Shown here: in pieces, positions 6,229 through 31,320 of the stretch
How positions within the stretch are numbered: position 1 is the first letter of the stretch
How the letters are laid out: every line of letters begins with the position of its first letter
Assembly (NCBI GenBank): GCA_965227835.1
Contig: OZ245768.1
Location: 990,001 to 1,022,000, forward strand
Reading direction: 5' to 3'
Length of the DNA: 32,000 nucleotides
Source of the DNA: Candidatus Saccharimonadota bacterium
Lineage (GTDB): Bacteria; Patescibacteriota; Gracilibacteria; BD1-5; UBA6164
Position numbers and translations under genes: made by a program
Notes under the pieces: generated by a model
The model's database searches: none
The model's input: the letters and a program-made list of their open reading frames with translations, nothing else
Told to the model about the DNA's origin: nothing

Positions 6229-7095
6229 ATATATATCTTCAGTCTCTTTTTCCCATTTCTCTATTCAATCTCTCCGGTCTCTTAACATCTCATAAAAATT
6301 ATCAAAATCTATCTTTATATCTTCTTTGTATAATCATATTACCCATATAAAATCTAAATGTTTCTTTGAAACTTTAAATCTTATCATACCTATATAAAAT
6401 TCAACTACATTTTTATCTCATTCTTTTACATCCTCTAATAATGAAATTATTTCTTGTATGTATAATAGGGATATGTCTTTCATATTTGTTACTATTTCAC
6501 AATAAAAACCTGTATGTGGATCCATTATATAACTGTCATTCTGCATACTATGAGATTTAAAGCCTAAATCTGGTTTTTGATTTTCATAATGAACTATTGC
6601 ATAGTCAATATGAAATATTTCAGGGGGTATCCATATATCTCCATCATATGATTCATTATATATAGATCTCTTACAAAAAGGTCATCCTTTTGTCTTTCAT
6701 GTCTCTTTTTCCCAAGCGTCTATATAGTCACTCCAATCTCTCATCATATGTAAAATATCTTCTATTTTTAAGTCTGTTACTATATAATCATCTGCATAAT
6801 TGTATGTAATAGTTACCTCAGAGTTAGGGTACTTTTCTCCATAATATCATTTTCATTTTTGATAACACCAAATTAATGTAGTTTCAAATCAAAATATAAA
6901 CTTCTCTCTCCTTCATTGACTCACTTCTTCAAGTTTACTTACTATCTCTCGAATGTCATATGATCATAGCTGGTTTAGTTCTGTATTTAATAAATAGGGA
7001 TCGTTACTTTCTTTCTCTTTTCAAATTCAATCTACCTTAATTTGAATAAATGGATTAACATTTGTTACAAAATAGTATTCAATTTTATTTAACAT
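6214..7095 (-). CDS. Putative cognate immunity protein of the EndoU-like orphan toxin (copy A, 293 aa)
   Basis: ATG at 7095, 5 nt after the toxin stop. Starts MLNKIEYYFVTNVNPFIQIKVDGIGKEK and ends ...DFDNFYEMLRDRRDGIEKWEKETEDIYKQYK*. No signal peptide. The immunity role is inferred from position only. Confidence 0.55.
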
Positions 7096-7100
7096 AATTT

Positions 7101-8776: not shown

Positions 8777-8984
8777 ATATTTTATTTAATATATAATTAT
8801 AATTTTTAAAATATTTATAATATCCGCTTACTCTTTTTCAATATTTGATAGCTTTTTCGTCACATTCTCATCATTTTTTTACACAAGAAGGTCACCCATT
8901 CCAAGCTTTTCATATATTTTCTGCCGTTATTTCTTTTCACTCTTCTAATATTTTTCCCTTTATTACATTGATCCTATAATTCAT
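8769..8984 (-). CDS. Small hypothetical protein (71 aa)
   Basis: ATG at 8984. Reads MNYRINVIKGKILEEGKEITAENIGKAWNGGPSCVKKGGECDEKAIKYGKRVSGYYKYFKNYNYILNKIYE*. It overlaps both neighbours by a few nt and has no recognisable family. Confidence 0.35.
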
Positions 8985-9588
8985 TATCTTCAAATATAAA
9001 TCTAGGACTTTTTTTTAAATCTAATAGAATTTCTTGTTGTTCTTTTGGGAGATTTTTTAATTCATTTAGTGAATAAAAATTCATTATATCTTGTGTCAAA
9101 ATTCAAAATTGTTTTAGGTCTTCAAAGGTTTCGGGAGTGTTATATTTTTTTCACATAATATAATAAAATCAAGCATAGTAGATTCTTGAATTTTTAGACA
9201 TAGAAAAAAATTCTTCTCATACTGAAATTGTATTATAATCTAAATTGAAATAATATTCATCATATATATATATATATATATAATCTCCTTTATTAAAGGC
9301 TCATTTTAAATGCCAAGATAAGCACTTTCTATTTTCAGAGTTACATATAGAGTTATAACGTTCAACAGGATCAAGTCAAAATCATGGAATAATTCTTTCT
9401 CATATATGATATTTTCATATTTTTGAATATAATGTATCTATGTACATATTCTTTTCTAATTCTCGGTAATATTGTTCATCTTTATGTGATATATAATAAT
9501 ATCAAGCCAATAAAAATAAGGAAAATAAACATATTAATATTACAAATAATCTATTTAGCATTAAAGTAATTTTATTTATATCAAACAT
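8974..9588 (-). CDS. Hypothetical single-pass membrane protein (204 aa), cassette B; paralog of 3699..4271
   Basis: ATG at 9588. Starts MFDINKITLMLNRLFVILICLFSLFLLAGYYY (TM helix), continues ...GDYIYIYIYDEYYF... and ends ...TPETFEDLKQFGILTQDIMNFYSLNELKNLPKEQQEILLDLKKSPRFIFEDNEL*. Length is a multiple of 3. Confidence 0.55.
9262..9282. repeat. (AT)10 microsatellite inside a coding region
   Basis: A 21-nt perfect AT/TA run that encodes YIYIYIY in 8974..9588. The paralogous site at about 3950-3975 has an interrupted version. Confidence 0.8.
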
Positions 9589-9591
9589 ATT

Positions 9592-10206
9592 TTAATAAAT
9601 TTTTTCTAAAATTTCTAAATTCCAAAAATATGTTTTTCAATATCATATTTCTTCATAATAGCTTCACCATGAATTTAAAATATCTTTTAATAATCATTTA
9701 TATCATTGATTAGGACTATATGTAGGTATAAAATCATATTTATCTGTGATAAAAATTTTCATATAAACTCAACTATCATCAACAACTGGTTCCATAGTCC
9801 AAGTAACATGTCAAAATGAAAAATATAAGTCCCAATTTCTAGTAGAGTTTTCTGAGTCCTCAATTAAAACTCATTTTTCTATTTCATCTCAATTAAAGGA
9901 ATTATTTTTATAGAAATTTTCAAACTCTTGTTCTCTAATATTATACCAACTAGTTTTCTTAACTTCTTTTGTAATCCAGTGATAATTTCAATATTCTAAC
10001 TTACTACCATCTCAATATATGAACTTTGCAAGCATAGCTGACGATATTTTTAAATTCAATCATTTTCAAGCTATTCATACCAAATTTAACATTATGGTAG
10101 CTGAAACTTTTTTATGTGACTGGTCTAAATAATACCAATAACTATTTCAAGCTATTTTTATATCTCAACTATCATTAGCTAATCAAATATTATTATTATA
10201 AATTTT
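9592..10206 (-). CDS. Hypothetical protein, open frame with no ATG near its 5' end; paralog of 4283..4918
   Basis: Reads KIYNNNIGLANDSGDIKIAGNSYWYYLDQSHKK...YGDGSKLEYGNYHWITKEVKKTSWYN...YDFIPTYSPNQGYKGLLKDILNSWGSYYEEIGYGKTYFWNLEILEKIY*. The stop lies 3 nt before the next ATG. Confidence 0.4.
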
Positions 10207-10861: not shown

Positions 10862-11120
10862 TTAGAAACTCATACTTTCTTTGATTTTTTCTCACTTTTC
10901 ATTCAACTTATAATCCGTAATATCAATCTTCTCTCCTTTTTTAATATTATAATTCTTATATTCTTCTAGTATACTATTTCTTTTATTTTCATATTCTTCT
11001 TTTAGATCATATAGTTCTTTTTTTATTCTTTTTCTTTTTCATCGTATTTTTTCCATTTCCGTATCAATTTGACTTGACTCAAAGATTCTGTGTATCTCGT
11101 TGAGTTTATTTGTATTGTTT
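10862..11120 (-). pseudogene. Nested toxin-linker remnant (copy B)
   Basis: Identical to 5970..6228 at an offset of 4892, including the same internal TAA. Confidence 0.45.
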
Positions 11121-11987
11121 ATATATATCTTCAGTCTCTTTTTCCCATTTCTCTATTCAATCTCTCCGGTCTCTTAACATCTCATAAAAATTATCAAAAT
11201 CTATCTTTATATCTTCTTTGTATAATCATATTACCCATATAAAATCTAAATGTTTCTTTGAAACTTTAAATCTTATCATACCTATATAAAATTCAACTAC
11301 ATTTTTATCTCATTCTTTTACATCCTCTAATAATGAAATTATTTCTTGTATGTATAATAGGGATATGTCTTTCATATTTGTTACTATTTCACAATAAAAA
11401 CCTGTATGTGGATCCATTATATAACTGTCATTCTGCATACTATGAGATTTAAAGCCTAAATCTGGTTTTTGATTTTCATAATGAACTATTGCATAGTCAA
11501 TATGAAATATTTCAGGGGGTATCCATATATCTCCATCATATGATTCATTATATATAGATCTCTTACAAAAAGGTCATCCTTTTGTCTTTCATGTCTCTTT
11601 TTCCCAAGCGTCTATATAGTCACTCCAATCTCTCATCATATGTAAAATATCTTCTATTTTTAAGTCTGTTACTATATAATCATCTGCATAATTGTATGTA
11701 ATAGTTACCTCAGAGTTAGGGTACTTTTCTCCATAATATCATTTTCATTTTTGATAACACCAAATTAATGTAGTTTCAAATCAAAATATAAACTTCTCTC
11801 TCCTTCATTGACTCACTTCTTCAAGTTTACTTACTATCTCTCGAATGTCATATGATCATAGCTGGTTTAGTTCTGTATTTAATAAATAGGGATCGTTACT
11901 TTCTTTCTCTTTTCAAATTCAATCTACCTTAATTTGAATAAATGGATTAACATTTGTTACAAAATAGTATTCAATTTTATTTAACAT
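11106..11987 (-). CDS. Putative cognate immunity protein of the EndoU-like orphan toxin (copy B)
   Basis: Same sequence as 6214..7095 at an offset of 4892. ATG lies 5 nt after the toxin stop. Confidence 0.55.
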
Positions 11988-11992
11988 AATTT

Positions 11993-13960
11993 TTAATCAA
12001 TAATAGGATAAAAAGTTCTTAATTCTTTTGTTCTCTCTATATATACAAACTCAATATTTATTCCATCAACTGTTGATGGTCACTTAAATATATTTAAACC
12101 TAGTCAGGTAGCATTTGGGTCTGCTAATCCCTTATTATTTTCTATTGCATAAGTTACTTCATCTATAATCTTTTGCTTACTCCAGCTATCTGGGAAAAAC
12201 GAAGAATTTCATACAGGTTTTCATCATTTTTTTGTTAAAGTATTATTATTTCCATAATCTATAACTACTTTTGCACTGTAAGGTTCATTCCAAGTATCAA
12301 TTGATTTGTCTATATTTTCTAATTTAGCTACTCATTGCTGGTTACTTTTATTATAATGAGTTATTGCCTTTTGAGAATGAACTCAGTTGAAAGTTCAGTC
12401 TGACTTAAACTTAATCTCTACAATATGATCTATCTTTCATTCTACTTTCTTCCTTACATCTTTCACATATTTTACTCATTTGAATGATTTTCGTATAAGT
12501 GATTGTTCTCGTACTTTCTTCAAAAACTTCCCCAAACTCAACTTATTCTTCATTTTCACTATATCTCCTATATCATCCAGTTTATATTCCTTAGCAATCT
12601 CTTTTGCTACTTCAAGTATCTCTTCAATCTTCATTCATAGCTCTTTTGATAATTTCTCTAGAGATTTATTTAATAATTCTCTTGCTCATAATCAGCTTCA
12701 TGCACCACTTGCTAATCATATTATTGTTAGAGTCTTTCAGAGTGTTCATAATTCATCACCTGTTATTGGATCTTTTCAGATAACTAGTGTTAATATATCA
12801 TATCACTCTCATACAATTGGGATTAGTGATACTATTATACTTGTTGTATTTCAATATTCTTCTTTTAGATCATATAGTTCTTTTTTTAATTCTTTTTCTT
12901 TCTCATCGTATTTTTTCCATTTCCGTATAAGTTTGACTTGACTCAAAAATTCTGTGTATCCTGTTGAGTTTATTTGTATTATTTCTTGTTTTGTTGGTTG
13001 TTCTTTTGTTTTTGATTCAATGTTTGCTATGGATGTATTATCATATCTTGCTATTAATCTTTCTTTGTAATAGGTGATTTTGTTATTTCTTTTTATGTAG
13101 GGTTTAAAATTATTACATATTTCACAATTTTGTTTTGAATATCATACTATATATATTCCATCTTCCCTTTTTTCTAGTTTTTGTCTTTTAATTTCTCAGT
13201 TTTTTGTTTGATATTCAACTCATACTTCTTCCAGAGTTTTTGGGTTTGTGTTTATTTTAAATTTAAATCCTCATATTATTTCATCTATTAGGTTTTCTAT
13301 GAAGTATTCTATTTCTATTAGATTTTTTTCTTCATTCGTGGTTTCTTTGGTATTTTCATTTTTTCCCTCTTCATCACTATCTTTTCAACTCTCAAGATTC
13401 TCTCATCATAACACTTTCAATAAAACACTTTCCTTATTTCATTCTCTATCTTCCATTCATATTATAACTTCTCATACTTCTATAGCCTTTATCTCAATAT
13501 AGTTTGTTTCAAAATAATTTACTGGGTTGCTACTATACTTTTTATATAATAATGCCTTATTATTAGTCTTGGTTAATTGTATGTGTCAGTTACTTTCATA
13601 TATTGGAAGTAGATATTTTTCTCAGATTTCTAGTTCTAATTCTTTATCTCTTTGAGAGATTACTAGATTTGTGTCTTTTATTTCAACTTCTATTTTTGCT
13701 TCTTGTCCGTATTTATCAAATATCTTTGCTTTGGTTTCTCATTTCTTTTTTCCTTTGATTTTTATTTCTCAGTCTTTGTCTACATCAAAATATATTATTT
13801 CTTCGTTGTATTCTCAATTTTTGTATCATCATCATCAGTCTAGTATTTTTCATTGGTATTTCTCATTTTCTTTTAATACTACTTTGTTTTTGTCTAACTT
13901 TATTTTAGGGGTTTTGTCTTTTATCTTTACTTTGAATTTAATCCGTTTCAAACATCTTTT
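11993..13960 (-). CDS. Orphan toxin module B: two Ig-like repeats, junction segment, PT-TG-like domain and EndoU-like nuclease; no start codon
   Basis: A stop-to-stop frame of 655 codons that opens directly after TAA 13961-13963. It begins ...KVKIKDKTPKIKLDKNKVVLKENEKYQGKILDGGGGYKNGEYNEEIIYFDVDKDGEIKIKGKKKGETKAKIF.... This stretch is near-identical DNA to 20820-21280 of the full-length toxin. From 13267 down it matches module A. Confidence 0.7.
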
Positions 13961-14017
13961 TTAAGTTCCAAAATTACTTAATGTTTATACCCAGCTTCTC
14001 TCACTTGTGTATCACTA

Positions 14018-14554
14018 CTATGAAAATCTCTCAAGGTTATTCATTCTTTTCAATCTCGTTTTTTTAACGATCCCAGTCATTTTCGTATAAAGTAAATAAT
14101 ACTCACAGCATTTCAAAACTCTCTCTCTAGTATCATCAAAAGAAAGCCATTCTCTCTTTATATCCTCTATAGCTTGCTTTGATTCTTCTTGTGTATATTC
14201 TTTTGATTTTACTAATTTATATTCTTTTAAATTTTCTCAATCTTTTTCTAATTCATGATATAATATTTTTATTTTCAATTTCCCATCTCTGAGTAAAGGA
14301 TAGAGATAGTCTAGGGTAAGGTCTAGTTGTTTTTCTCTATTGTATTTAATCTTTTCATACTCTTTATCTGTTATATTTTCTCACCAAAATTCATTTAATC
14401 ATACTGAATATTTATTTTCATATAAATCATAAACTACTACTGCTCTTCTTTCCTTGAATGAAAATCAGTCGCATATTCAATGTCTATCTATTATTTCATT
14501 TCAGTATCAATCTTTCGGAATTATTAGTCAATTAGTGTAAGCTTTTTTTAACAT
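14018..14554 (-). CDS. Array paralog 1 (putative immunity protein, 178 aa)
   Basis: Starts MLKKAYTNGLIIPKDGYGNEIIDRHGICDGFSFKERRAVVVYDLYENKYSVGLNEFW (N-type a). Contains ...LDLTLDYLYPLLRDGKLKIKILYHELEKDGENLKEYKLV... (short middle). (CT)5 at 14119-14128. Ends ...YYLLYTKMTGIVKKTRLKRMNNLERFS* inside the conserved box. Confidence 0.65.
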
Positions 14555-14566
14555 ATTAAAATATTT

Positions 14567-15235
14567 CTATTTAGGTAATAAAAATTTTATCTCACTAGGT
14601 CAATCTATTCATCATTCTTTCAATAAATCCATAGTAACTTCATGTCTATACCCAGCTTCTCTCACCTGCTTATCACTACTGTGAAAATCTCTCAAGGTTA
14701 TTCATTGCTTTCAGTTTCGTTTTTTTAACAATCCCATTCGTTTTCGTATAAAGTAAATAATACTCAACACATCTCAAAACTCTCTCTCTCTAGTATCTTT
14801 AATAGAAAGCCATTTTTTCTTAATATCTTCTATTACTTTTTGAGACTCTTTTTTAGTATACTCTGTATCATAAATCCAAGCTCAATCCCAATTAGAGTCC
14901 TGTAAGGAATTTTCAAAGTATTGCCTCCACCAATCATTAAGAGGGTTCTGTAATTCTTTTTTTAAATCTTTCTTAGTTTTTAAAAGTTTTTTAGTTTTTA
15001 CTTTCAACTTTCCATCTCTGAGTAAAGGATAGAGATAGTCTAGGGTAAGGTCTAGTTGTTTTTCTTCTGGTATTCTATTATATGTTCCTTTCGGCATATC
15101 ACATAACCAAAATTCATTTAATCATTTTGAATATTTATTTTCATATAAATCATATAAAAAATATTCTATTCATTCTTTATCTGTAAATCACTCTGTTATT
15201 CAATATATATCTTTTATGTCTTTTATTTTTTTCAT
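14567..15235 (-). CDS. Array paralog 2 (222 aa), frame-shifted into the toxin-tail frame
   Basis: Starts MKKIKDIKDIYGITEGFTDKEGIEYFLYDLYENKYSKGLNEFW (N-type b), with the long middle segment (track ORF 14882..15097 is part of it). (CT)6 at 14780-14791 makes the ORF continue as ...GITLRDFHSSDKQVREAGYRHEVTMDLLKEGGIDGPSEIKFLLPK*. Confidence 0.6.
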
Positions 15236-15369
15236 AATTCTATTGATTAGGAAGTAAAAACTTTATTTCAATCCCTTCTCATCTTAATTTTTGTAGTTTT
15301 CAATCTTTCCACTTCAACAAATCTATAGTAACTTCATGCTTAAACCCAGCATCATTCACTTGCTTATCA

Positions 15370-15975
15370 CTACTGTGAAAATCTCTCAAGGTTATTCACT
15401 CTTTTCAATCTCGTTTTTTTAACGATCCCATTCATTTTCATATAAAGTAAATAATACTCAAGACATCTCAAAACTCTCTCTCTAGTATCTTTAATAGAAA
15501 GCCATTTTTTCTTAATATCTTCTATTGCTTTTTGAGACTCTTTTTTAGTATACTCTGTATCATAAATCCAAGCTCAATCCCAATTAGAGTCCTGTAAGGA
15601 ATTTTCAAAGTATTGCCTCCACCAATCATTAAGAGGGTTCTGTAATTCTTTTTTTAAATCTTTCTTAGTTTTTAAAAGTTTTTTAGTTTTTACTTTCAAC
15701 TTTCCATCTCTTAATAAGGGATATAAATATACCAATGTAAGATCTAGTTGTTTTTCTCTATCATCTTTAATCTTTTCCCATTCTTCACCTGTTATATTTT
15801 CTCACCAAAATTCATTTAATCATACTGAATATTTATTTTCATATAAATCATAAACTACTACTGCTCTTCTTTCCTTGAATGAAAATCAGTCGCATATTCA
15901 ATGTCTATCTATTATTTCATTTCAGTATCAATCTTTCGGAATTATTAGTCAATTAGTGTAGGCTTTTTTTAACAT
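15370..15975 (-). CDS. Array paralog 3 (201 aa)
   Basis: N-type a (MLKKAYTNG...), long middle (...KVKTKKLLKTKKDLKKELQNPLNDWWRQYFENSLQDSNWDGAWIYDTEYTKKESQKAIEDIKKKWLSIKD). (CT)5 at 15474-15483. Ends ...NNLERFSQ*. Confidence 0.65.
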
Positions 15976-16096
15976 ATTAAAATATTTCTATTTAGGTAAT
16001 AAAAATTTTATCTCACTAGGTCAATCTATTCATCATTCTTTCAACAAATCTATAGTAACTTCATGCTTAAACCCAGCATCATTCACTTGCTTATCA

Positions 16097-16588
16097 CTAC
16101 TGTGAAAATCTCTCAAGGTTATTCATTGATTTCAGTTTCGTTTTTTTAACGATCCCATTCGTTTTCGTATAAAGTAAATAATACTCAACACATCTCAAAA
16201 CTCTCTCTATAGTATCATCAAAAGAAAGCCATTCTCTCTTTATATCCTCTATAGCTTGCTTTGATTCTTCTTGTGTATATTCTTTTGATTTTACTAATTT
16301 ATATTCTTTTAAATTTTCTCAATCTTTTTCTAATTCATGATATAATATTTTTATTTTCAATTTCCCATCTCTGAGTAAAGGATAGAGATAGTCTAAAGTT
16401 AACAATAATGCTTCTTCTTCTGATATTCTATTATATGTTCCTTTCGACATATCACATAACCAAAATTCATTTAATCATTTTGAATATTTATTTTCATATA
16501 AATCATATAAAAAATATTCTATTCATTCTTTATCTGTAAATCACTCTGTTATTCAATATATATCTTTTATGTCTTTTATTTTTTTCAT
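16097..16588 (-). CDS. Array paralog 4 (163 aa)
   Basis: N-type b (MKKIKDIKDIYG...), short middle. (CT)4AT at 16201-16210, which has the same length as (CT)5. Ends ...NNLERFSQ*. Confidence 0.65.
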
Positions 16589-16757
16589 AATTCTATTGAT
16601 TAGGAAGTAAAAACTTTATTTCAATCCCTTCTCATCTTAATTTTTGTAGTTTTCAATCTTTCCACTTCAATAAATCCATAGTAACTTCATGTCTATACCC
16701 AGCTTCTCTCACTTGTGTATCACTACTATGAAAGTCTCTCAAGGTTATTCATTGATT

Positions 16758-17315
16758 TTAGTTTCGTTTTTTAACGATCCCAGTCATTTTCGTATAAAGT
16801 AAATAATACTCAAGACATCTCAAAACTCTCTCTCTAGTATCTTTAATAGAAAGCCATTTTTTCTTAATATCTTCTATTACTTTTTGAGACTCTTTTTTAG
16901 TATACTCTGTATCATAAATCCAAGCTCAATCCCAATTAGAGTCCTGTAAGGAATTTTCAAAGTATTGCCTCCACCAATCATTAAGAGGGTTCTGTAATTC
17001 TTTTCTTAAATCTTTCTTAGTTTTTAAAAGTTTTTTAGTTTTTACTTTCAACTTTCCATCTCTTAGTAAAGGATAGAGATAGTCTAGGGTAATGTCTAGT
17101 TGTTGTTCTCTATTATCTTTTATTTTCTCCCATTCCTCTTGAGTTATGGTACTATTCATAAAATAATTTAGTCACACCGACTGTTTATTCCAATACAAAT
17201 CATAAATAGTTACAATCTTACCATTTTCCTCATCCACAGAAAATCAATCACAAATACCATAAATATCTTTGATTCTTTCTTTTTCTAAAAATTTTTTAAA
17301 GTTATTATCCTCCAT
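16758..17315 (-). CDS. Array paralog 5 (185 aa)
   Basis: Starts MEDNNFKKFLEKERIKDIYGICDGFSVDEENGKIVTIYDLYWNKQSVGLNYF (N-type d), long middle (contains track ORF 16926..17159). (CT)5 at 16826-16835. A T6 rather than T7 run gives the earlier end ...GIVKKRN*. Confidence 0.65.
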
Positions 17316-17479
17316 AACACATATTATTGTTTAGGTAATATAAATTTTACTTCTTTTACCTTTCCAAATTCTCACTTATTGTTTGTCTTCAACAAATCCA
17401 TAGTAACTTCATGTCTATACCCAGCTTCTCTCACCTGCTTATCACTACTGTGAAAATCTCTCAAGGTTATTCATTGATT

Positions 17480-18049
17480 TTAGTTTCGTTTTTTAACGAT
17501 CCCAGTCATTTTCGTATAAAGTAAATAATACTCACAGCATTTCAAAACTCTCTCTCTAGTATCTTTAATAGAAAGCCATTTTTTCTTAATATCTTCTATT
17601 ACTTTTTGAGACTCTTTTTTAGTATACTCTGTATCATAAATCCAAGCTCAATCCCAATTAGAGTCCTGTAAGGAATTTTCAAAGTATTGCCTCCACCAAT
17701 CATTAAGAGGGTTCTGTAATTCTTTTCTTAAATCTTTCTTAGTTTTTAAAAGTTTTTTAGTTTTCACTTTCAATTTCCCATCTCTGAGTAAAGGATAGAG
17801 ATAGTCTAGGGTAATGTCTAGTTGTTTTTCTCTATTATATTTAATCTTTTCATACTCTTTATCTGTTATATTTTCTCACCAAAATTCATTTAATCATACT
17901 GAATATTTATTTTCATATAAATCATAAACTACTACTGCTCTTCTTTCCTTGAATGAAAATCAGTCGCATATTCAATGTCTATCTATTATTTCATTTCAGT
18001 ATCAATCTTTCGGAATTATTAGTCAATTAGTGTAAGCTTTTTTTAACAT
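17480..18049 (-). CDS. Array paralog 6 (189 aa)
   Basis: N-type a, long middle. (CT)5 at 17548-17557. T6 run, so it ends ...GIVKKRN*. Confidence 0.65.
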
Positions 18050-18205
18050 ATTAAAATATTTCTATTTAGGTAATAAAAATTTTATCTCACTAGGTCAATC
18101 TATTCATCATTCTTTCAATAAATCCATAGTAACTTCATGTCTATACCCAGCTTCTCTCACCTGCTTATCACTACTGTGAAAATCTCTCAAGGTTATTCAT
18201 TGATT

Positions 18206-18757
18206 TTAGTTTCGTTTTTTAACGATCCCAGTCATTTTCGTATAAAGTAAATAATACTCAAGACATCTCAAAACTCTCTCTCTAGTATCTTTAATAGAAA
18301 GCCATTTTTTCTTAATATCTTCTATTACTTTTTGAGACTCTTTTTTAGTATACTCTGTATCATAAATCCAAGCTCAATCCCAATTAGAGTCCTGTAAGGA
18401 ATTTTCAAAGTATTGCCTCCACCAATCATTAAGAGGGTTCTGTAATTCTTTTCTTAAATCTTTCTTAGTTTTTAAAAGTTTTTTAGTTTTCACTTTCAAT
18501 TTCCCATCTCTGAGTAAAGGATAGAGATAGTCTAGGGTAATGTCTAGTTGTTTTTCTCTATTATATTTAATCTTTTCATACTCTTTATCTGTTATATTTT
18601 CTCACCAAAATTCATTTAATCATACTGAATATTTATTATAGTATAACCTATATACAGTAACAATGATTCTATCTTTATCTGTGAATCAAGAACATATACC
18701 ATGAAAATCTTTTATTCACTTTTTTTCTAAAAATTCATTCAATTCATTATCTATCAT
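18206..18757 (-). CDS. Array paralog 7 (183 aa)
   Basis: Starts MIDNELNEFLEKKGIKDFHGICSGFTDKDRIIVTVYRLYYNKYSVGLNEFW (N-type c), long middle. (CT)5 at 18274-18283. Ends ...GIVKKRN*. Confidence 0.65.
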
Positions 18758-18934
18758 AATTCTATTTGTTAGGAAGTAAAAATTTCACCTCCTTTTCAAT
18801 TGGTTTTAACTCTCACTTATTGTTTGTCTTCAACAAATCCATAGTAACTTCATGCTTAAACCCAGCTTCTCTCATTTGTGTATCACTACTGTGAAAATCT
18901 CTCAAGGTTATTCATTCTTTTCAGTTTCGTTTTT

Positions 18935-19411
18935 TTAACGATCCCATTCATTTTCATATAAAGTAAATAATACTCAACACATCTCAAAACTCTCTCTCTC
19001 TCTAGTATCATCAAAAGAAAGCCATTCTCTCTTTATATCCTCTATAGCTTGCTTTGATTCTTCTTGTGTATATTCTTTTGATTTTACTAATTTATATTCT
19101 TTTAAATTTTCTCAATCTTTTTCTAATTCATGATATAATATTTTTATTTTCAATTTTCCATCTCTGAGTAAAGGATAGAGATAGTCTAGGGTAATGTCTA
19201 GTTGTTGTTCTCTATTGTCTTTAATCTTTTCCCTTTCTTCATCTGTTATATTTTCTCACCAAAATTCATTAAGTCATATTGAATATTTATTATAGTATAA
19301 CCTATATACAGTAACAATGATTCTGTCTTTATCTGTGAATCAAGAACATACACCATGAAAATCTTTTATTCACTTTTTTTCTAAAAATTCATTCAATTCA
19401 TTATTTATCAT
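18935..19411 (-). CDS. Array paralog 8 (158 aa), immediately downstream of the full-length toxin
   Basis: ATG at 19411, 4 nt after the toxin stop. Starts MINNELNEFLEKKGIKDFHGVCSGF (N-type c), short middle. (CT)7 at 18990-19003 puts the 3' end in the third frame, ending ...RERESFEMCGVLFTLYENEWDR*. Confidence 0.6.
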
Positions 19412-19415
19412 AATT

Positions 19416-22400
19416 CTATTTGTTAGGAAGTAAAAATTTCACCTCCTTTTCAATTGGTTTTAACTCTCAATTATTGTTTGTCTTCAACAAATCTATAGTA
19501 ACTTCATGCTTAAACCCAGCATCTCTCACTTGTGTATCACTACTATGAAAATCTCTCAAAGTTATTCATTCTTTTCAATCTGGAGATGTATACCTATAAA
19601 CACTTCATTTATTTGATGGCTTTTTTTCTCACTTCCACCCCTTAGTTTCTAAACTTTTCATTACACCTTCAACTCCTTCCTTATCTCACAATACCTTCAC
19701 TGCTCATCATTCTAATCATTTAACCTTATCTAATCAATCGACCTTTTCTAAATCCTGAGCCACTTTTAATATATCATCAACTCAAGTTATATCCTTAAAT
19801 TTACTTGCTATAAATCAAGACCTTCATGTAGACCTTACCCTCTTCACAACCCTCTCACTACTCTTAGCTCATTTCAGTTTTCCGGGTCATACAAACATCA
19901 AACTAGAACTCACTCATACATATCATTCTATCCATTGTATATTATAGGATGTAAGATATTCTTTATAACCCTCATACTCATTATATACTTCCTCTATTTG
20001 ATTATATAATTCTCATAATCATTCTTTCGCTTTCTCCCAATCTTCTTCTGCTGTTCTTTCTCAAGTTATATATCCATATAGTATTTTTCAGCTTCATTTT
20101 AACAAATTTATTATATCTTTTGGGGTATCTTGTAATTCTTCTATCGTGTCTTTTATTGCTTCTTTACTTCAATCTATATATCATTGATTATCTGTTTTTA
20201 TTTCTCTTATCTTCTTTTTTATATTATAGAATTTTTCTTTTGTTTCTTCTACATATTCTTGTACTCAGCTTATTTCTAGGTTTTCTTCTTTGTTTTTAGT
20301 ATTTGTAGTTCTTATTCTATTATCTGCAAATGAGAGGTATGTATTGGTGTTATAGTATGTTGTAGTATTGTTTGTGTCTATGAAGTATGGTTGAAATTCG
20401 TTGTAACAGTTTATACATATTTCTTTGTCTAATCAGAGTATATATATTCAGTCTTCTTCTTTTTCTAGTTTTTCTCTTACATGATTTCAATTTTCTCATT
20501 TGTATTGTATTCATATTTCTTTTAGGGTTTCTGGGTTTCAAGTTATTTCAAAGTATAGGCTTGATAGTCAATCAATACTTGTATTTGATGAATATTGGAG
20601 GTTAGTGAATTTTGAGGTTTGAGGTTCTTCTCAGTTACTTTCATTTCACTCTTTTTCATTATCTTCTATTTCTTCTTCATTATTCTCATCTCATTTCTCC
20701 TCCTCTCCTTCTCACTTATCTTCTCATCATAACACTCTCAATAACACACTTTCCTTATTTCATTCCCTATCTTCCATTCATATTATAACTTCTCATACTT
20801 CTATAGCCTTTATCTCAATATAGTTTGTTTCAAAATAATTTACTGGATTGCTACTATACTTTTTATATAATAATGCCTTATTATTAGTCTTGGTTAATTG
20901 TATGTGTCAGTTACTTTCATATATTGGAAGTAGATATTTTTCTCAGATTTCTAGTTCTAATTCTTTATCTCTTTGAGAGATTACTAGATTTGTGTCTTTT
21001 ATTTCAACTTCTATTTTTGCTTCTTGTCCGTATTTATCAAATATCTTTGCTTTGGTTTCTCATTTCTTTTTTCCTTTGATTTTTATTTCTCAGTCTTTGT
21101 CTACATCAAAATATATTATTTCTTCGTTGTATTCTCAATTTTTGTATCATCATCATCAGTCTAGTATTTTTCATTGGTATTTCTCATTTTCTTTTAATAC
21201 TACTTTGTTTTCTTTTAATTTTATTTTGGGGGTTTTGTCTTTTATCTTTACTTTGACTATGCTTATTATATCTCAACTTTGATATATATATAGTTCTGTT
21301 TCTCATTTGGTTTTTCATATTATAGAGAATTTTTCATAATTAGTTCTTTTCCCGTTTTCCCATATTCTTTGTTTACTTATTTGTATTATTTCCGGATTTG
21401 TTGTTGAGAATGTATAGTCTTTATTTATTTCTTGTTTGAATGATTCGCATGTTATTCATATTGGTACTTCGCATTCATATGTTCTTGGGGGTTTAGGTTT
21501 TATTGTTATTTCTAGTATGTGGCTTATGTAGTCTCAATCATAGGATTTTACATATATATTTGAAGTTCAGCTTAGTTTTCATTCTAGTTTTATTTTATTT
21601 TTTGTTCAGTTTATTTCTATTATGTTGGGTCTTGAATTGTTATAATAGTATCATCTGTTTTCTATTTTAAATAAGCAACTTTTTCATACTTCTGTTTCAC
21701 ATTTGTGTATTCTTGGGTTTGGAACTGGTTTTACTTTTACATTCCATATTTTCCTTAGTCATTTTCAACTTTTGTATATCTTTATTTTTGTTGTTCAGGC
21801 TTTTTTTCAGCATATTCAGTTTATTTTTTCCGTTTCTCAAGCTACTCTTTTTTTTATTCACCATTCAACACTAGCTATACCACTATTATCTGGCTTAAAG
21901 TTATAATCATCTCTATACCATGTTTTTATACAATCTGTTTCATTTAGGGTAAAATTTTCCTCACTTGCTTTGGATATTATTTTTATTTCATATCTTGGCC
22001 ATTTCCTTCAATCTTTTTCATTTATGTATATTGTTGATTCTCAAATTTTATCAGGATCTATATACACTGTATCCTTTCATACTCTAAGTCTGTAATCAAA
22101 TAATCATAAATTATCTGATTTTATGTCATAGTTGTCTACATTTTCTGGTAATATTAATTTTTGGGTGGCTCATACCTCCATTTCTATTTTGTATTTTTTA
22201 AATGGGGGTTTAGGTATTATTGTTATTTTATAGGTCTTTTTATTTCTTCATAAGGAATCTTTTACATAAATTTCTGTTTCTCATCATACTTGTCATCTTA
22301 TGTATGTTTTTTTATCATGAGGTCTTCTTTTTATACTAGTAAAATGGTTATTACTGGTTATTTTGTGTCAAGGTGAAATATATTCTAGTATTTCATCTCA

Positions 22401-25400
22401 TTGATAAATTGTTCTTGTTTCTATTTCTGGAGGATCTGTTATTATATTTATATCTAATATGTGCCTGACTACTCAATCACCACCTGATAAGTAATATTTT
22501 ATCTTTCAAAATAGGTTTCATCTAAATTTCATTACTTTAAAATAATGATTGTATTCAAGTTTAGACATTGATTTTACACTATGTTCTCACTCAACTGAAT
22601 AGCTGTAATATGTGTTACCTATTCAATATATATTTATATATGTTCATTCTTTTATGTTTAGAGTATGGATTTTTGGTTCTGGTAAGGGTATTATTTTTAC
22701 TTTATGATTAGCAACATGATATCACCTAGTTTTCACATATAATTCTAATTCTCAATCCTTTTTTCATGTAATACAATAACCTTTTTCATATATTTCTAAT
22801 TCAGCTAATTCTTCATTATTCGTGGAATATTCAGTTTCTATTCATACTTCTATACATTTCCTCTTTGAATTATATACCTCAAATACTTTTTCTTCTATTT
22901 TTGGATGCACCATTATATCTATAGTATATAGATGTATATTTTGATCATATACTCTATATCTTACTTTTCAGGGGGTTTTTCATAAAAGTTTTATATCCCA
23001 ATTTTTTTGATGTGTTTCTATTTCTCAACCATCTAGCCTGTCATAATAAAATTTAAGATCCCTTCAATTAGTTTTAACTACTAAATCAGAGTATTCTCAT
23101 TGTTTAATATTTAAATCATATTGTATTACCTCAGGGGCTGGTTTTATTATTAGTTTAATTATATATTTATTTGATACTCTTATATATGCTGTTCATATTT
23201 CTTTTGCTCTTATTGTGAAATCGCGATATCCCTTAGATAAATCTACCAAACTATTACTCGATATAGAGTAATTTTCGCTGTAAGCTTTTTTTAGGTATCT
23301 TTTGTATGCTTGTCATTTATAAATTTCTATTTCAAATGTAGGTGGAGGAGTTATGGTAAGCTTTAATATATATTGTAAATATCAATTTTTATCTGATACT
23401 TTAATATTTACAGTTCAAACTTTTTTTGCACTTAAAATATATTGATCCTCTCTAGTTCAAATACTTATTATATCATTATTAGATACTTCATATTTATGGT
23501 TTCGAGCATTTTTTAGATTTACTATTGAATTCTTTCATTCTTGTAATGAAATATTTTTAATTTCTACAGGTTTTATGTTTAACTTTAGAGTATATATATG
23601 TATATTTTGTCTATTTTTAATTTTTACATACAAAGTTCCAACTTTTTTTGTAAGTAAATGATAATAGTCACCTCCTTTAGAAAAACTAGCTAAGCTCCTA
23701 TCCGATAATTCATATCTATATATCCAAGTAGCCGGTAATTTCTCAGAGTGTTTTTTTCAAACATTGATGCTTCTATCAAAAACAGGAATTCATTTTATAC
23801 TAAGACTGACTTTATGATCTGTATGGCTACGACGAGGATCTGTTATTTTTATAGTAACATTTCAAGCTTTTCTAGCATATATACGAAATGACCTTCTTAT
23901 TTTTTTTATTTCTACTAAACTAGGATTTGATACTTGAATTCTTTTGTATGAATGAACAAAATAATAATTTCAAACTGTTATACTTTTATATTTAGTAGGA
24001 AGGTATCTATTTATACTAATTCAATCTGTTTGCTCTTCTTGAAATGTTTCAGGTTCTATAATTAATTCCTCTCATAAATCATCGTTTTCTTCTAACATAT
24101 CTCCATTTTCTTCTTTTATTTTTTCATTTTCTTCAAACTCTTTTATGTATAATTCTTTTTCTTGATTTTTATCTTCTAGATTATCTTCTCAAAGACTGTT
24201 TATTTCTATATTTCATGTTTCATCATTTAAAAAACTATTTTTCTCTATTTCTTCTAACTCTTCTTGACTTATAATTCATGGTTTTATTTCTTCTACTTCA
24301 TTTCGTTTCATTAATTCTTCTAGCTCTTCTTCACTTAATTCTAACTCATAGTTACTCTTAGAACCATCAGAAAAATTATTTATTTCAAGTCAGCCATCCT
24401 CGTAATTTTCTATAATTTCTATTTCTTCTTTTTTTATCTCTCATATTTCTGAATTGTTATTTTTAAGATAATCTAGCATTTCTTTTTCTTCTTCACTGCT
24501 CAATTTTTCTTCGTCTTGATTATCTTTTTCATTTATTTTTTCAAATTTGAGGAACTCTATACTACTTTTTTCATCATTTCAAATATTTTCATCTAAATTA
24601 TTTATTTTTATTCAATTTTCCTCTTCTATAATCAACTCCTTATCATAAAAGTCATTTATTCTCTCTAGTTTTACTTCTTTGTTTTCTAGCTTTTCTCATA
24701 ATTCTAAACCTCATGAAAAACCATTTATAATCTCATTTGGATTATAATTTTTTACTTCTAACTCTTGGAAGTTTTCTTCTGTGTATAAACCATTATTTTC
24801 TCAAGTATTATTTATCTCTAGTCATTTTTCTGCTCAATCTATATACAATTCTTTTGTATGTTTCAATTCATCTATTTTTTCTTCTATTTCAATTTCCACA
24901 TTTTTAAATCATTCTAAACCTAGTTCTTCTTCATTTATTTCTAGTTTTTCTTCCTTTTTTCATAGCTCATATTCTTCTAAAAACAAATCTTTAAGATCTT
25001 GTTTTTGATTATTATTTATTTCTACTCATTTCTCTGCTCAATCTATATACAATTCTTGCATTTTATTTTCAAGCTCAGGAGAATTTTCTAAAAAAGTTTT
25101 TTCTTCTATTTCTTCATTCTCATAAAAATCTTGAGATATATCTTTATAGTTAAAATCCTTTCACACAGGTATTCAGTGCGTTATTTTTTCACTATTTAAT
25201 TCAGTATTTCAAATATCATTTATTTCTATATTTTTTATTTCTACATTTTCATCAAAATACCTGTCTCAAAAAATACCATCAAATTTCTTTGATTCTTCTT
25301 TTATTAGTTCTAATTTTTCTAATTCTCCATATGTAAATATAGATTTATTTTCTTTGTAATTTTGATTTATTTCTAAATTTTCCTTAGAGTTTAAAAAATT

Positions 25401-27518
25401 TAGTAAAATTGGATTTAGTTTTGTATTTTCAGATTCTTGTGTAGCTTCATTTTCTTCTATTTTTTGTTCTGTATCTTCTTTTTTTTCTTCAAGAAATTTA
25501 CTACTTTCTATTAACTCTATTTTTTCAACTATTAAAGCATCATCTTTATTTTCCTGTAAATTATCTCCTTTTCCTTCCTCTATCTTCCCTTCTTCCACTT
25601 TTTCTTCAGTCTCTTGTTCTTGCTTAATTTCATCACTAATTTCTTCCTTATCTTCTTCTTTTTTAATTTCATTTTCTTTACCTTTATTCTCCTCTAATTC
25701 ACTTTTCTTTTCTTCTATTCCATTTTCAACTGTTTCTTCACTTTCAACTTTCAACTTTTCCCTTTCAACTAAGCTTAATTCTAGTGAAGATATTATTTGA
25801 TTTAAGCTGGCAAATTTGGAAATTGGTTTATTTGACTCTGTTATAATACTTGTAGAATTTTCTTGCAATATTTGCCTAGCTTGTTTTGTTGTAAGATTTG
25901 GTTTGTAGCTTTTTATTATTGATATTAATCATACTATATGAGGAGTAGCCATGCTTGTTCAGCTTAATCTCCTATAGTTTCATTTATTTGTTGGGAATGT
26001 TGAATATATTGATACTCATGGAGCATTTATATCTACTTTGTCTCAATAATTTGAGAAACTTGCTCTGGTATTACTTTCATCTATTGCTGCTACTGATATT
26101 GTTTCCTCGCATCATCATGGAATATAGTTTCTTGTATCAGTATTTCAGTTTCAACTAGCTGATACAATTATTTTTCAGTTTCTAGTTGCTGATTTTATTC
26201 AATCACATATTGGATTACTGTTAGGATTTCATCTTCATCAAAGACTCATATTTACTATATCTATATCATTTTCTTTTATATATTCTAGTGCCTTTATTAC
26301 TGCATAATTTGGACAAAATCAATTCTTATCACATATTTTTAGTGGAATTATTTTACTGTAGGGATTTATTCAAAGTATTCATTTTCAATCTAATTTTGAT
26401 GATATTGTTCAAGCTATATGAGTTCAGTGTCATTGGTCATCCTGAGTGTCTTTTTCTGGATTTATAAAATTTTGTCATTTTAGAACCTGTCATTTTAGAT
26501 CTGGGTGATTTGAATCTATTCAAGTATCTATTATGGCTATTTTTATTTTTTTATTATTTTGTTTTTGATAAATTTCTGTTTGTTTTTCTAGTTTTAAAAG
26601 GTAGTTTATAGGATTATATTTTCTTATACCCCATGTTTTTTCCAAATTTTCCAAACCTAGTTTATTTTGAATTTCTTTATTTCTTTTTAAAAATTCTTCA
26701 TCTTTTTCTAACACTCTTCATATATCCTTCTCTCCTTTAAGGAGAGGGGCTAGGGGTGAGGTCTCCTCAGATTGAGTCGGGAGTGATGATTGTTCAGACT
26801 TGGACGAACTTTGGTTTATAGAATATATTTCTGGTTTTACTATTTTTATATTTAAAAAATTTTCTGGAATTTTTCATATTTCTATTTGTCATAATATCTC
26901 TTCTACAAATATTCAACTTTCTGGTAGTGTTATCTCATAATATTTTTGTTTTCAATTATTATAAAGGTAATTTATCTTGGTTTTTTCTTCGAATTTTTCA
27001 AAAATATTTTTTACATGATTTTTATTTTTGTTTGTTTCTACTATAAGTGTATAGTTTTTTTCTTGCTTTAGCGAATTTTTCAGTGTATCATAAGCTTGTT
27101 TTTTCTTTCTTAGACTTGGTGCTATATCCTCATCTATTCAGCTTGATAATTTAGTATCTTTACTAAGACTTGATACAGCTTTTAAAACAACTTTCTTTCT
27201 TGTATCTTGGGCTATTTTATTGATGTTTTTTGTACTTTTTTCTTTCTGTATTTGTTCTTGAGCTTCCTCTAAAGTCTCTTTTATTTCTTCTTTTTTTTCT
27301 TCTAGTTTTTCTTGCAACTCTTCATCTTTTATTACATCTTCCATTTTATCAGTTGCTTTTTCTAAGACTTTTTCTACTTTTTCTAGAAATTTTTCTGTTT
27401 TTTGCCTAGTTTGCTCTATTTGAGCTTTTTCTGATTGAACAGATGCATAAATTATTTGTATGTTGGTATTTCATAAAAGAAATACCAATAAAAGAAGTTT
27501 GCATATTGTTTTTTGCAT
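19416..27518 (-). CDS. Giant secreted polymorphic-toxin protein (2700 aa): signal peptide, S8 subtilisin-like protease, acidic repeats, about 13 Ig-like repeats, PT-TG-like linker, HicA-like C-terminal domain
   Basis: ATG at 27518 gives MQKTICKLLLLVFLLGNTNIQIIYASVQ. With TGA=Gly one frame runs to TAG 19416-19418 (8103 nt, a multiple of 3). Track ORFs 27138..27344, 26520..26714 and 25266..25868 all lie in this frame. I checked the frame at six internal anchor points. I saw no in-frame TAA or TAG during manual translation. Confidence 0.8.
19419..19668 (-). other. C-terminal toxin domain with a HicA/YcfA-like pattern
   Basis: Reads GVMKSLETKGWKGEKKPSNKGSVYRYTSPDGKEGITLRDFHSSDTQVRDAGFKHEVTIDLLKTNNNGELKPIEKEVKFLLPNK*. 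Compare the HicA pattern L..L...GW......GSH..Y.HP.G...T.P.H......GT...I...AGL. The canonical GSH His is Val here. The 19600-19900 stretch looks more G+C-rich than its surroundings. Confidence 0.35.
20830..24010 (-). repeat. About 13 tandem Ig-like (Big_2-type) repeats of about 85-95 aa within the giant CDS
   Basis: A recurring pattern of the type ...G.(T/V).(I/L)Y(V/I)K......Y.(I/L).(I/V).(I/V).P.P.... Examples are KGETELYIYQSGDIISIVKVKIKDKTP, VGTLYVKIKNRQNIHIYTLKLNIKP and GTSNIYVKSYDGDYISHILEITIKPKPP. Confidence 0.55.
24010..25800 (-). repeat. Acidic E/K-rich low-complexity region with reiterated ...G..(E/K)IN(N/S)... modules
   Basis: Examples are ELYIDGAEKGVEINNNQ, ELYIDGAEKGLEINNTGENNG, ENGIKINNLDENIGN, EDGGLEINNFSDGS, ETGNIEINSLGEDN and DIGNTELNSEK, embedded in Glu/Lys-rich spacers. 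Confidence 0.5.
25808..26591 (-). other. Peptidase S8 (subtilisin-like) domain of the giant CDS
   Basis: Catalytic triad motifs are KIAIIDTGIDSNHPDL (Asp codon 26526-26528), DDQGHGTHIAGTI (His codon 26427-26429) and LSGTSMATPHIVG (Ser codon 25953-25955). There is also VSASGNGN. Several of the motif Gly residues are TGA. Confidence 0.85.
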
Positions 27519-27525
27519 AAAAATA

Positions 27526-27557
27526 AAGGTTAGTTATAAAATTTACAAGCTAACCTT
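27526..27557. promoter_or_regulatory. Hairpin immediately upstream of the giant gene's start codon
   Basis: aaggttag-(16 nt)-ctaacctt lies 8 nt beyond ATG 27518, in the presumed 5' leader. Function unknown. Confidence 0.3.
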
Positions 27558-29900: not shown

Positions 29901-30009
29901 TTCTCGTTCAATTTTAATTTTTGATATTAATAGATTATATGATAAATTGCTTTTTTTCAATTTTAGTATAGCATATTAGAAATAAAATACATTTCTAAAT
30001 TTATAAAAA

Positions 30010-31320
30010 ATGCATAAAAAATTAAATGCTTTTACATTTGTGGAGTTGATGATAGTTATAATAATTTTAACTACAATATCAATGATATGATTTTCATCCT
30101 ATACTTCTCACCTATCTTGAGTCAGAGATACAAATAGAATTTCACAACTAAGAGCTATCTCTGAATCTTTAAAAATATATTCTGTTTTCAACAGACTACC
30201 TTACCCAGATGAAAGAGTAAGCATAAAAAATGATACAGATTATATAGCATATCAAGGTTATTTATGAGAAGAATCAATAACTCAAATAAAATATAGCTGA
30301 GATTGAGTGGATCCCGAAAATTGAACTCCATTTTCATATTACTTAGATTCAAATAGGAAAAATTTTCAGCTTATGAGTTTTTTAGAAAACAATAAAGATA
30401 AAATTACTTATAAGGAAACAGTTTCAAAGACCAATGCGATTGATTATGATTCAATTTATCCTTATGTAGATTGAAAAGATTTATGAATAATGACATGAAC
30501 TTGAGATGATTTAAATAAACCAATTCAAGAACTATGAATAGATGAAATTGATATTTCTTCTGTTTCAACCCCTTATGTATCTTATATAAATAACGACCTT
30601 AAATTGGTTTGAAACTCAGAAGTTTTATATGTATTAGAATGAATAAAAGATGCTTGAGGTATATGAGCCAACTGTAAAGAACTCATAGATTCAAGACCAA
30701 GCTTGGAATGAAAAGATTGATATTATCTTATAAAACCCAGATGAGAAAAAGCTTTTATAGTACATTGTAATATGAGTCTTTATGGTTGATGATGGACTAG
30801 ATATACTGAATATAGCTCATCTATGTACTATGTAAATGAACTTTGAGATTTAGTAGAAAATTTTGATGAATTATTTTATTCATATAAAAGAAGCTGAATA
30901 AATGATAAATATGCTTTTAGATTTAAAAAACTTTGGACTAAACAATGTGGAGATGAACATTGACATAAATCTGATTTAAAACTAGCACTTAGAGATTATG
31001 TTGACCATATAGAAAATGAATCATGGTGATATTGTTGACGGAATAGCACAACTGGAGATGCAAATGATATAGAAATAGAGAAAATAATAAATTTTGAGTT
31101 TAAAAATGATGATTGTGTTACCTGAAACTTAAATAAAACAAGTGGTCGGAATTACTCTTGGTCTAGTGTTACAACATCAGATTGAAAATCTGTGGGAGAT
31201 CATGTACATCGGATTTCTAATCATACTGTACTTTTTTGACCAAGGTGAAACTGATCATCCCGGTGTGCCTGAGCAAATTCATGACCGAGTGCATCTGAAG
31301 TATATATGTATTTGAGATAG
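30010..31320 (+). CDS. Type IV pilin-like protein with a C-terminal fibrinogen-related (GGGWT) domain, 436 aa
   Basis: Starts MHKKLNAFTFVELMIVIIILTTISMIGFSSY, a class III signal / N-methylation motif with Glu at +5. The C-terminal part reads NCKELIDSRPSLEGKDGYYLIKPRGEKAFIVHCNMSLYGGGWTRYTEY, which is the fibrinogen C-domain A-subdomain pattern. Many TGA=Gly codons. Stop is TAG 31318-31320. Confidence 0.75.

Follow-up and report, generated by a model that had tools for sequence, protein, structure and literature searches.

The toxin locus and its genetic code

A polymorphic toxin gene of 2,700 codons, followed by its cognate immunity gene and an array of orphan toxin ends and immunity genes, is found on the minus strand of a 32,000-nucleotide stretch of contig OZ245768.1 (positions 990,001 to 1,022,000; hereafter the window), and the subject of this report is the last 100 codons of that gene. 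These codons probably encode the putative toxic tip of a Sec-secreted protein with a swappable end, the tip belonging to a tiny family that lies nearest to Pfam DUF7028 and is not demonstrably HicA. The features of the locus are collected in Table 1.

The gene becomes visible only with a non-standard genetic code. Translation with table 11 leaves the toxin region without a long open reading frame (ORF) and almost no gene of the window intact, and places ten TGA "stops" among the final 105 codons of the supposed toxin gene. When TGA is read as sense, a 2,705-codon ORF extends over 19419-27533 on the minus strand, with 157 in-frame TGA codons vs 11 TGG. Reading TGA as Trp would give a protein with 6% Trp, and the subtilase motifs DTGID, HGTH and SGTSMA appear only when TGA encodes Gly. 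On account of this codon ratio and of the Gly needed by the subtilase motifs, TGA is assigned to Gly and not to Trp, and the window uses genetic code 25. The host therefore belongs to the code-25 Patescibacteria, in a lineage like that of the Gracilibacteria/Absconditabacteria. The window holds no tRNA gene that could directly confirm the code. An earlier note on this DNA had quoted a peptide as the C-terminus of a full-length polymorphic toxin, and that peptide is indeed present, exactly at 19485-19664 on the minus strand (amino acids (aa) 2619-2678). The sequence is thus real, yet it exists only under the recoding of TGA to Gly, which the note had left unstated.

Table 1 Features of the toxin locus and of the rest of the window (MAG, metagenome-assembled genome; module and domain coordinates refer to the window).
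Feature	Position	Strand	Basis
Full-length polymorphic toxin gene	19419..27518	-	2,700 codons under code 25, stop TAG 19416-19418
Peptidase_S8 domain, aa 323-555, in cis in the toxin	25854..26552	-	Pfam PF00082, 178.6 bits, E 2e-52 (code-25 translation)
C-terminal module common to the window toxin and the toxin of MAG OZ245922.1 at the DNA level	19490..20470	-	DNA identity
Basic linker KLKGAKSSERVVKRVRSTGRSGFIASKFKD (aa 2547-2576) that forms the core of the GC-rich patch	19791..19880	-	Composition and code-25 translation
Toxin domain proper, aa 2601-2700 (GLEGGAVKV...KFLLPNK)	19419..19718	-	Homology start with P0046/L004
Core with a match to DUF7028 (profile positions 35-74 of 83) and a weak one to HicA_toxin (positions 4-40 of 58)	19542..19670	-	Pfam
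Conserved arm GITLRDFHSSDTQVRDAGFKHEVTIDLLK, in every orphan fragment	19482..19568	-	Alignment of orphan copies
Variable C-terminal end, here of type A (TNNNGELKPIEKEVKFLLPNK) out of four	19419..19481	-	Comparison of tail ends
Cognate immunity gene imm1	18938..19411	-	ATG 4 nt after the toxin stop
Immunity paralogues imm2-imm9, interleaved with orphan 3' fragments of the tail	13981..18911	-	Alignment
Individual orphan tail fragments	18765-18911, 18065-18196, 17327-17470, 16596-16748	-	Alignment
Individual orphan tail fragments, continued	15991-16122, 15243-15395, 14570-14701, 13981-14040 (last degenerate)	-	Alignment
(AG)n tracts	~19009, 18289, 17563, 16841, 16216, 15489, 14797, 14134; L001 9748, 10409	- (window)	Sequence
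PT-TG + EndoU_bacteria orphan cassettes, near-identical pair	11996-13960, 7104-8384	-	Pfam
293-aa candidate immunity genes, identical, one after each EndoU cassette	11109-12083, 6217-7191	-	Position; no Pfam match
Two related orphan fragments starting KIYNNNIGLANDSGDIKIAGN	9595-10206, 4286-4918	-	No Pfam match
~200-aa proteins with an N-terminal hydrophobic segment, one after each KIYNNNIGLANDSGDIKIAGN fragment	8977-9591, 3702-4292	-	
IS200-like Y1 transposase	5247-5693	-	PF01797, E 9e-35
436-aa protein with prepilin-type N-terminus (FTFVELMIVIIIL)	30007-31317	+	No Pfam match

Architecture of the full-length toxin

The toxin opens with a signal peptide (aa 1-25) and continues through a coiled coil, an S8 subtilase, acidic repeats and about 12 beta-rich repeats to a C-terminal exchangeable module. 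A Pfam scan of the protein returned Peptidase_S8 and repeated T2SS-T3SS_pil_N-like beta domains, and no further significant family. A secretion signal and a long repetitive body are in this way combined with a C-terminal toxin domain that varies, as the same tip sits on a divergent body in a MAG and an EndoU tip sits on a shared body fragment in an orphan cassette of the window. The immunity gene lies directly 3' of the tip, a linkage kept at two further loci (L001 in the MAG and L004 on a JGI contig), and eight units of tail fragment and immunity gene, two EndoU cassettes and two further cassettes are found downstream. Since this is the layout of a textbook polymorphic-toxin locus, the last domain of the full-length protein is, by its position, the toxin tip.

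The exchangeable C-terminal module

A relative with the same architecture, a 2,549-aa toxin, is encoded in the 1.0-Mb Patescibacteria MAG OZ245922.1 (L001/L002). The DNA of the two genes is 93-99% identical from 20065 to 19490 and 76-99% identical back to about 20500; over most of its length the shared module stands at 88-99%, with a dip to 76-82% around 20110-20290. Further upstream, beyond about 20600, identity between the two genes falls below about 60%, which is the level of poor alignment. The final 19419-19481 differs between the two toxins, and the end type of the MAG toxin occurs in the window as orphan copies. Because the last ~1 kb is 88-99% identical over most of its length and the bodies are so divergent, exchange of the module is well supported.

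The earlier note had drawn attention to a patch richer in G and C at 19600-19900, and had taken it as fitting a module acquired or exchanged separately. The patch is borne out but modest, with a GC content of 0.35 vs a window mean of 0.257 (standard deviation 0.036; z = 2.6), a level attained by just 0.8% of 300-nucleotide segments. The GC content at third codon positions (GC3) is 0.28 in the patch vs 0.16 for the whole toxin gene, so that amino-acid composition alone is insufficient to explain it. Separate acquisition or exchange thus agrees both with the raised GC3 and with the confinement of the 93-99% DNA identity to the 3' module, and of the two, the comparative DNA identity is the weightier sign that the module moves separately.

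The patch codes for a basic linker rich in Gly, Val and Arg (KLKGAKSSERVVKRVRSTGRSGFIASKFKD) and for the first part of the toxin domain. In the S8-PTS polymorphic toxin systems of Gram-positive bacteria, a [R/K]-Xn-[R/K] subtilase/kexin processing rule has been invoked for the basic patch upstream of the toxin domains (PMC9424270). By analogy, the linker, whose KRVR|S sequence fits this rule, is a putative site of cleavage by the S8 peptidase.

The tip domain and its relatives

The N-terminal boundary of the tip is placed at aa 2601, because homology to its divergent relative P0046 starts at GLEGGA[VI]KV. P0046 was the one new tail homologue in an exhaustive HMMER search with the immunity-tail fusion P0001, which also returned 24 immunity homologues. 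It is a start-less orphan ORF on a 4.85-kb JGI contig (L004), has an immunity homologue directly after it and, once retranslated with code 25, is 56% identical to the window tail; this orphan retains just the 100-aa tail together with the immunity gene. A tail homologue followed by an immunity homologue is accordingly found at three loci, namely the window, L001 of the MAG and the JGI contig L004.

Other searches added little. A word-indexed homologue search with the tail returned only tail fragments, including P0001, which stems from the MAG, and no match for the tail was obtained in NCBIfam, in PHROGs, in PDB sequences (phmmer and hidden Markov model (HMM) searches) or by tblastn against plasmids. 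A scan of GTDB representative genomes contained no tail copy beyond that in MAG OZ245922.1, and two JGI metagenome scans, the second with a TGA-aware DNA pattern, contained no genuine further copy. In a search for members of DUF7028, the tail was combined with 98 synthetic conservative variants, which served as a search probe alone and broadened the range of 5-mer words; it retrieved just two fragments, both from the genome to which the window belongs, and no member of DUF7028. In public protein collections, relatives of the window proteins carry Trp wherever their genes have TGA, and such translations defeat word-based and profile searches and hide these relatives. The tip family, known from three loci so far, is either very rare or concealed by mistranslation. 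The 61-aa protein P0021, from the same contig as the window, is the orphan fragment 18765-18947 with TGA read as Trp, a fragment that had been called as a gene by a gene caller. These cases call for caution, as standard-code pipelines shred loci of this kind and databases that read TGA as Trp conceal their relatives.

Immunity protein

The gene directly downstream of the toxin, imm1, is the sole copy in the window with the family-canonical C-terminus (AG tract n = 7). The 24 homologues of the family are 25-45% identical to the window type and have in common the motif LD.TL.YL.PLLK.GKLK and the C-terminal motif F..V.FTLPENEW. All of them show Trp where the window has TGA-encoded Gly, from which it follows that they come from TGA-recoded organisms. 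An AlphaFold model of P0026, which is ~95% identical to the window paralogues, was built with the alignment of this family and reached a predicted local distance difference test (pLDDT) of 90.1 and a predicted TM-score (pTM) of 0.83, and Foldseek found no neighbour for it in the PDB (best E 1.8, TM <= 0.22). A protein that is confidently modelled, yet has no structural relative, deserves attention, and it may represent a new fold among immunity proteins.

The immunity proteins have no match in Pfam, HicB included, or in NCBIfam, and a HicB-like assignment was rejected on the missing HicB match and on the model without a PDB neighbour. Polymorphic-toxin immunity proteins rarely resemble the antitoxins of toxin-antitoxin systems, and a non-HicB immunity protein therefore does not exclude a HicA-like toxin, although it removes one possible support for that reading. 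The exhaustive search also returned P0028, an 815-aa protein made of ~10 identical 75-aa repeats, in which immunity profile positions 80-134 were matched in 10 stretches. Its repeat unit has no Pfam match, and the protein may be no more than a repeat array translated out of frame or artefactually.

The orphan tail/immunity array

Between 13981 and 19411 on the minus strand, eight tandem units follow one another, each composed of an immunity gene and an orphan copy of the last 44-51 codons of the toxin. The orphan copy begins right after the canonical stop of the immunity gene, at (G)ITLRDFHSSD, and carries the conserved arm (GITLRDFHSSDTQVRDAGFKHEVTIDLLK), the likely recombination target. Four types can be told apart among the orphan tail ends, namely A (..KTNNNGELKPIEKEVKFLLPNK), B (..KEGGIDGPSEIKFLLPK), C (..KTNNKGEFGKVKEVKFILPKQ) and D (..KWKDGKLQKLRGEGIEIKFLLPNQ), and each is always followed by the same one of four immunity N-terminal types, which holds for all 11 junctions of window and MAG; the same end/immunity pairs recur in the MAG at L001 9376-11260. 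The variable cassette is thus the toxin end plus the immunity N-terminus, set between conserved arms. This layout suggests recombination that re-tips the toxin and places the cognate immunity gene adjacent to it, as such a process would be expected to leave it. It likewise suggests, and does not prove, that the toxin end and the immunity N-terminus are the specificity determinants. Since the tip-switching cassette is unusually small, these determinants would be easy to map.

Every immunity gene carries an (AG)n tract just after its ..DTRER codons. With n = 7, as in imm1 and the first immunity gene of the MAG, the family-conserved C-terminus is encoded. Six window copies have n = 5, one of them with an A-T interruption, and shift frame to VLRCLEYYLLYTKMTGIVKK. 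With n = 6, the third frame is entered and translation reads through into the orphan tail, which yields apparent immunity-tail fusions such as 14570-15235 and P0001. The variation in the tract possibly reflects slippage-based switching or simply the decay of orphans.

Affinities of the tip

DUF7028 (PF22970) was the top Pfam match for every isolated tail fragment of window and MAG (24-26.4 bits, E 7e-6 to 4e-5), and was also found when the whole toxin was scanned (21.2 bits, E 2.8e-4). For P0046 it was the sole match (19.5-21.4 bits, E 2.5e-4 to 9e-4), and none of ten shuffled controls matched it. All matches are partial, covering profile positions 34-74 of 83 and leaving the first ~33 positions unmatched. 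The closest profile of the tip is thus that of an uncharacterised family, which gives the best match over the alpha1-beta3 core and the only reproducible one. As regards the core, alpha1-beta1-beta2-beta3 is predicted, with Val2640 at the position of the HicA catalytic His. The tip as a whole would be a small alpha+beta domain, with a predicted beta-alpha-beta-beta-beta order followed by a C-terminal hairpin. The AlphaFold2 model behind this prediction was built from P0046 with Trp, and not the Gly of code 25, at TGA (pLDDT 57, pTM 0.49; residues 11-56 at pLDDT ~70-82). It has a strand at 6-9, a helix at 12-24 and strands at 28-33, 37-43 and 50-56, then at 71-75 and 91-94; a C-terminal helix is absent from it.

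The earlier note had read the tail as HicA-like from the spacing of its motifs, with Val in place of the catalytic His of GSH. Both observations are accurate, as the motifs lie where they were described and the Val of GSV, Val2640 in window and MAG, aligns with the His of HicA G-[GS]-H, the equivalent residue in P0046 being Asp. The assignment itself was not borne out by the profile and structure comparisons that the note had proposed, as Pfam gave HicA_toxin at E 0.16, phmmer and HMM searches of the PDB gave none, hhalign stayed at 38-44% probability and Foldseek, with a low-confidence model, gave no HicA match. The match to a different family that the note had allowed for exists in part, DUF7028 being the best and reproducible match and lying just below its threshold. 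Nor are HicA tips without precedent on polymorphic toxins, as the note had implied, since Li, Tan and Zhang reported in 2022 that HicA domains form the C-termini of BetaH/S8-PTS toxins and of an RHS toxin (PMC9424270); HicA is not mentioned in Zhang et al. 2012. The claim of a HicA tip is therefore unproven, and its concept had been published before.

That the tip is nonetheless a true, highly divergent HicA-fold (dsRBD-like) mRNA interferase captured by a polymorphic toxin, with its catalysis moved from the GSH His to substitutes such as His2658 of DFH, or Tyr or Arg, is doubtful, although several points speak for it. The tail keeps the HicA register (a helix ending in GW, then KGS, Y..PDG, I-T-L, F-H-S and RDAG) and the predicted alpha-beta-beta-beta order, and, as with the published tips, the small domain would form the end of a secreted toxin whose locus includes an S8 peptidase. 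HicA_toxin (PF07927) is the second-ranked Pfam family and covers the same residues as DUF7028. BLASTP of the tail against the Thermus HicA TTHA1913 gave 37% identity over 43 aa (pairwise E 5e-5), and when the tail family was compared by hhalign with aligned HicAs of the Thermus type, P was ~3e-4 at the probability quoted above, the score of 20.6 exceeding all 200 column shuffles (mean 10.2, maximum 18.0); these TTHA1913 and hhalign P-values are optimistic, because the Thermus template was picked for looking similar. With a HicA-subfamily HMM, the window tail outscores 998 of 1000 shuffles (2/1000 reach its score), yet the same model fails to separate P0046 from shuffles, 97/1000 of which reach its score. 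The Pfam HicA_toxin score, 12.6 bits against a cutoff of 27, comes from a 71-aa fragment, is unreported for longer fragments and for P0046, and sits at the noise level of shuffled controls, one in ten shuffled or reversed controls giving a 14.3-bit match to an unrelated family. No HicA appeared at E up to 10 in the PDB sequence searches or among the top 50 Foldseek matches in PDB or BFVD with the low-confidence model. Two of the features that define HicA, a profile match and the catalytic His, were looked for and neither was found; the published tips are ~50% identical to toxin-antitoxin HicAs (PMC9424270), whereas the window tip is not, and its resemblance falls below every significance threshold. 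No His is conserved in the tip family, P0046 having Asp (GD for GS-V), Gly for the His of DFH, with the TGA checked in the DNA, and EPQ for KHE. His2658 (DFH) and His2671 (KHE) were dropped as replacement catalytic residues, as P0046 has Gly and Pro there. The tail differs from HicA further in an extra N-terminal strand, in lacking 7-8 residues of the last helix and in ~30 additional C-terminal residues that form a variable hairpin instead, and its immunity protein is unrelated to HicB. HicA membership is thus not established and the resemblance is weak and unproven; a distant dsRBD/HicA-like alpha-beta-beta-beta core is possible, if on the unlikely side.

It is improbable that the HicA and DUF7028 resemblances are both due to chance and that the tail, as a domain specific to its lineage, has an unrelated fold such as the TBP-like one of the RnlA NTD/NRD. 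No profile match attains its curated threshold, the TBP-like N-terminal repeat domains of RnlA are the top Foldseek matches in the PDB for the tail model (E 0.11, TMq 0.50), and an RNase LS-like phage protein is among the BFVD matches. These structural matches derive from a poor model, however, none reaches E <= 0.001 in PDB or BFVD, sequence similarity to RnlA is lacking and the matched domains are not its catalytic part; two tail sequences only 56% identical both pick DUF7028 as best match in the same register, which no shuffle does. Less likely still is a role of the 100-aa tail as an immunity-docking or targeting plug, with toxicity residing in the upstream ~280 aa, a helical region with a hydrophobic segment (WIEGYVGVSSSLMFVGPG) that is possibly membrane-active. 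This would suit a module shared with the MAG over its whole ~1 kb and not in the tail alone, an upstream region that contains a hydrophobic stretch and has no Pfam match, and a tail devoid of a conserved catalytic-looking His. Against it, the paralogous orphan cassette has at the equivalent extreme C-terminus a bona fide nuclease, EndoU, preceded by PT-TG, the orphan on the JGI contig keeps just the tail and immunity, and all eight orphan fragments diversify the end of the tail beside immunity genes. The assignment of a toxic tip nearest to DUF7028 is itself weakened on several counts. The best DUF7028 score, 26.4 bits, is just under the Pfam gathering cutoff of 27, by 0.6; no literature on DUF7028/PF22970 was found; and the tail model, made from a Trp-for-Gly mistranslation, is of low confidence. 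Moreover, the absence of a conserved His rests on P0046, an orphan fragment that may be decayed or non-functional, and the end/immunity pairing could stem from physical adjacency and not from functional specificity.

Proposed mode of action

If the last 100 codons do encode the toxic tip, it could be speculated that the toxin is exported and that the in-cis S8 subtilase would then cut at the basic KRVR linker to free the tip. The ~280 aa that precede the tip in the exchangeable module might aid entry into the target cell, which the tip would poison, most plausibly by binding or cutting RNA with a chemistry that does not use His. Binding or cleavage of RNA is proposed because of the weak HicA/dsRBD likeness, which is its sole basis; candidate residues for this step would be the conserved Tyr, Arg, Asp/Glu, Ser and Lys and the lysine-rich EKKPS.KG face. 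Self-protection would be provided by the downstream 150-190-aa immunity protein, with its fold without a PDB relative, and specificity may lie in the pairing of two segments, the ~21 C-terminal residues of the toxin and the ~50 N-terminal residues of the immunity protein. The resulting mini-cassette could be swapped by recombination between the GITLRDFHSSD arm and the eight downstream orphan copies.

Taken together as a single proposal, these elements would describe a new DUF7028-related toxin family, so far confined to TGA-recoded Patescibacteria, that kills without the HicA histidine. A ~21-residue C-terminal hairpin, recognised by the N-terminal part of an immunity protein of novel fold, would set its specificity, recombination at the GITLRDFHSSD arm would re-tip it from the eight units, and (AG)5-7 slippage would toggle the orphan immunity genes among intact, truncated and read-through frames. 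That all of this holds jointly seems rather unlikely.

Comparison with known systems

The S8-PTS systems consist of a separate S8 peptidase gene and a BetaH-domain toxin (PMC9424270). The window locus resembles them in its S8 subtilase, polymorphic toxin and immunity gene, in the basic patch before the toxin domain as a candidate cleavage site and, if the tip acts on RNA, in a tip of the kind that prevails there, S8-PTS tips being diverse and mostly RNases. It differs from them in that the subtilase is present in cis, at the N-terminal side of the 2,700-aa toxin, in the code-25 Patescibacterium as host and in that no BetaH domain was recognised in the toxin, for which no BetaH profile was used. 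With its S8 domain in cis and no BetaH domain recognised, the locus does not match the published S8-PTS layout.

Orphan C-terminal fragments with cognate immunity downstream of a full-length gene are also known from CdiA-CT/CdiI and Rhs arrays, where, as here, a conserved arm common to the orphans and the full-length gene permits recombinational tip switching. Here, however, what is swapped is an unusually small unit, made up of ~21 residues from the end of the toxin and the N-terminus of the immunity protein, and it is present in eight tandem copies, most orphan immunity genes being frameshifted at the (AG)n tract. What is new in the locus is a rare, undescribed tip family, a subtilase in cis, a code-25 host and an immunity protein without a PDB neighbour, together with an eight-unit array whose strict pairing makes it an unusually fine-grained library of tip/immunity cassettes. 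Code-25 episymbiotic or predatory Patescibacteria are almost unstudied experimentally, and the locus displays in such a host a full polymorphic-toxin arsenal with an in-cis subtilase.

Other features of the window

Downstream of the array, the two EndoU cassettes, each followed by its candidate immunity gene, form a duplication of roughly 4.9 kb, and the longer of them has its last two body repeats in common with the full-length toxin. The two fragments starting KIYNNNIGLANDSGDIKIAGN and the ~200-aa proteins that follow them are probably further toxin/immunity cassettes. The Y1 transposase lies between the duplicated cassettes, in the patch where the GC content of the window peaks (up to 0.38). 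On the plus strand, the 436-aa protein with a prepilin-type N-terminus contains in its C-terminal half a YGGGWT motif, which we take to be reminiscent of fibrinogen-related domains.

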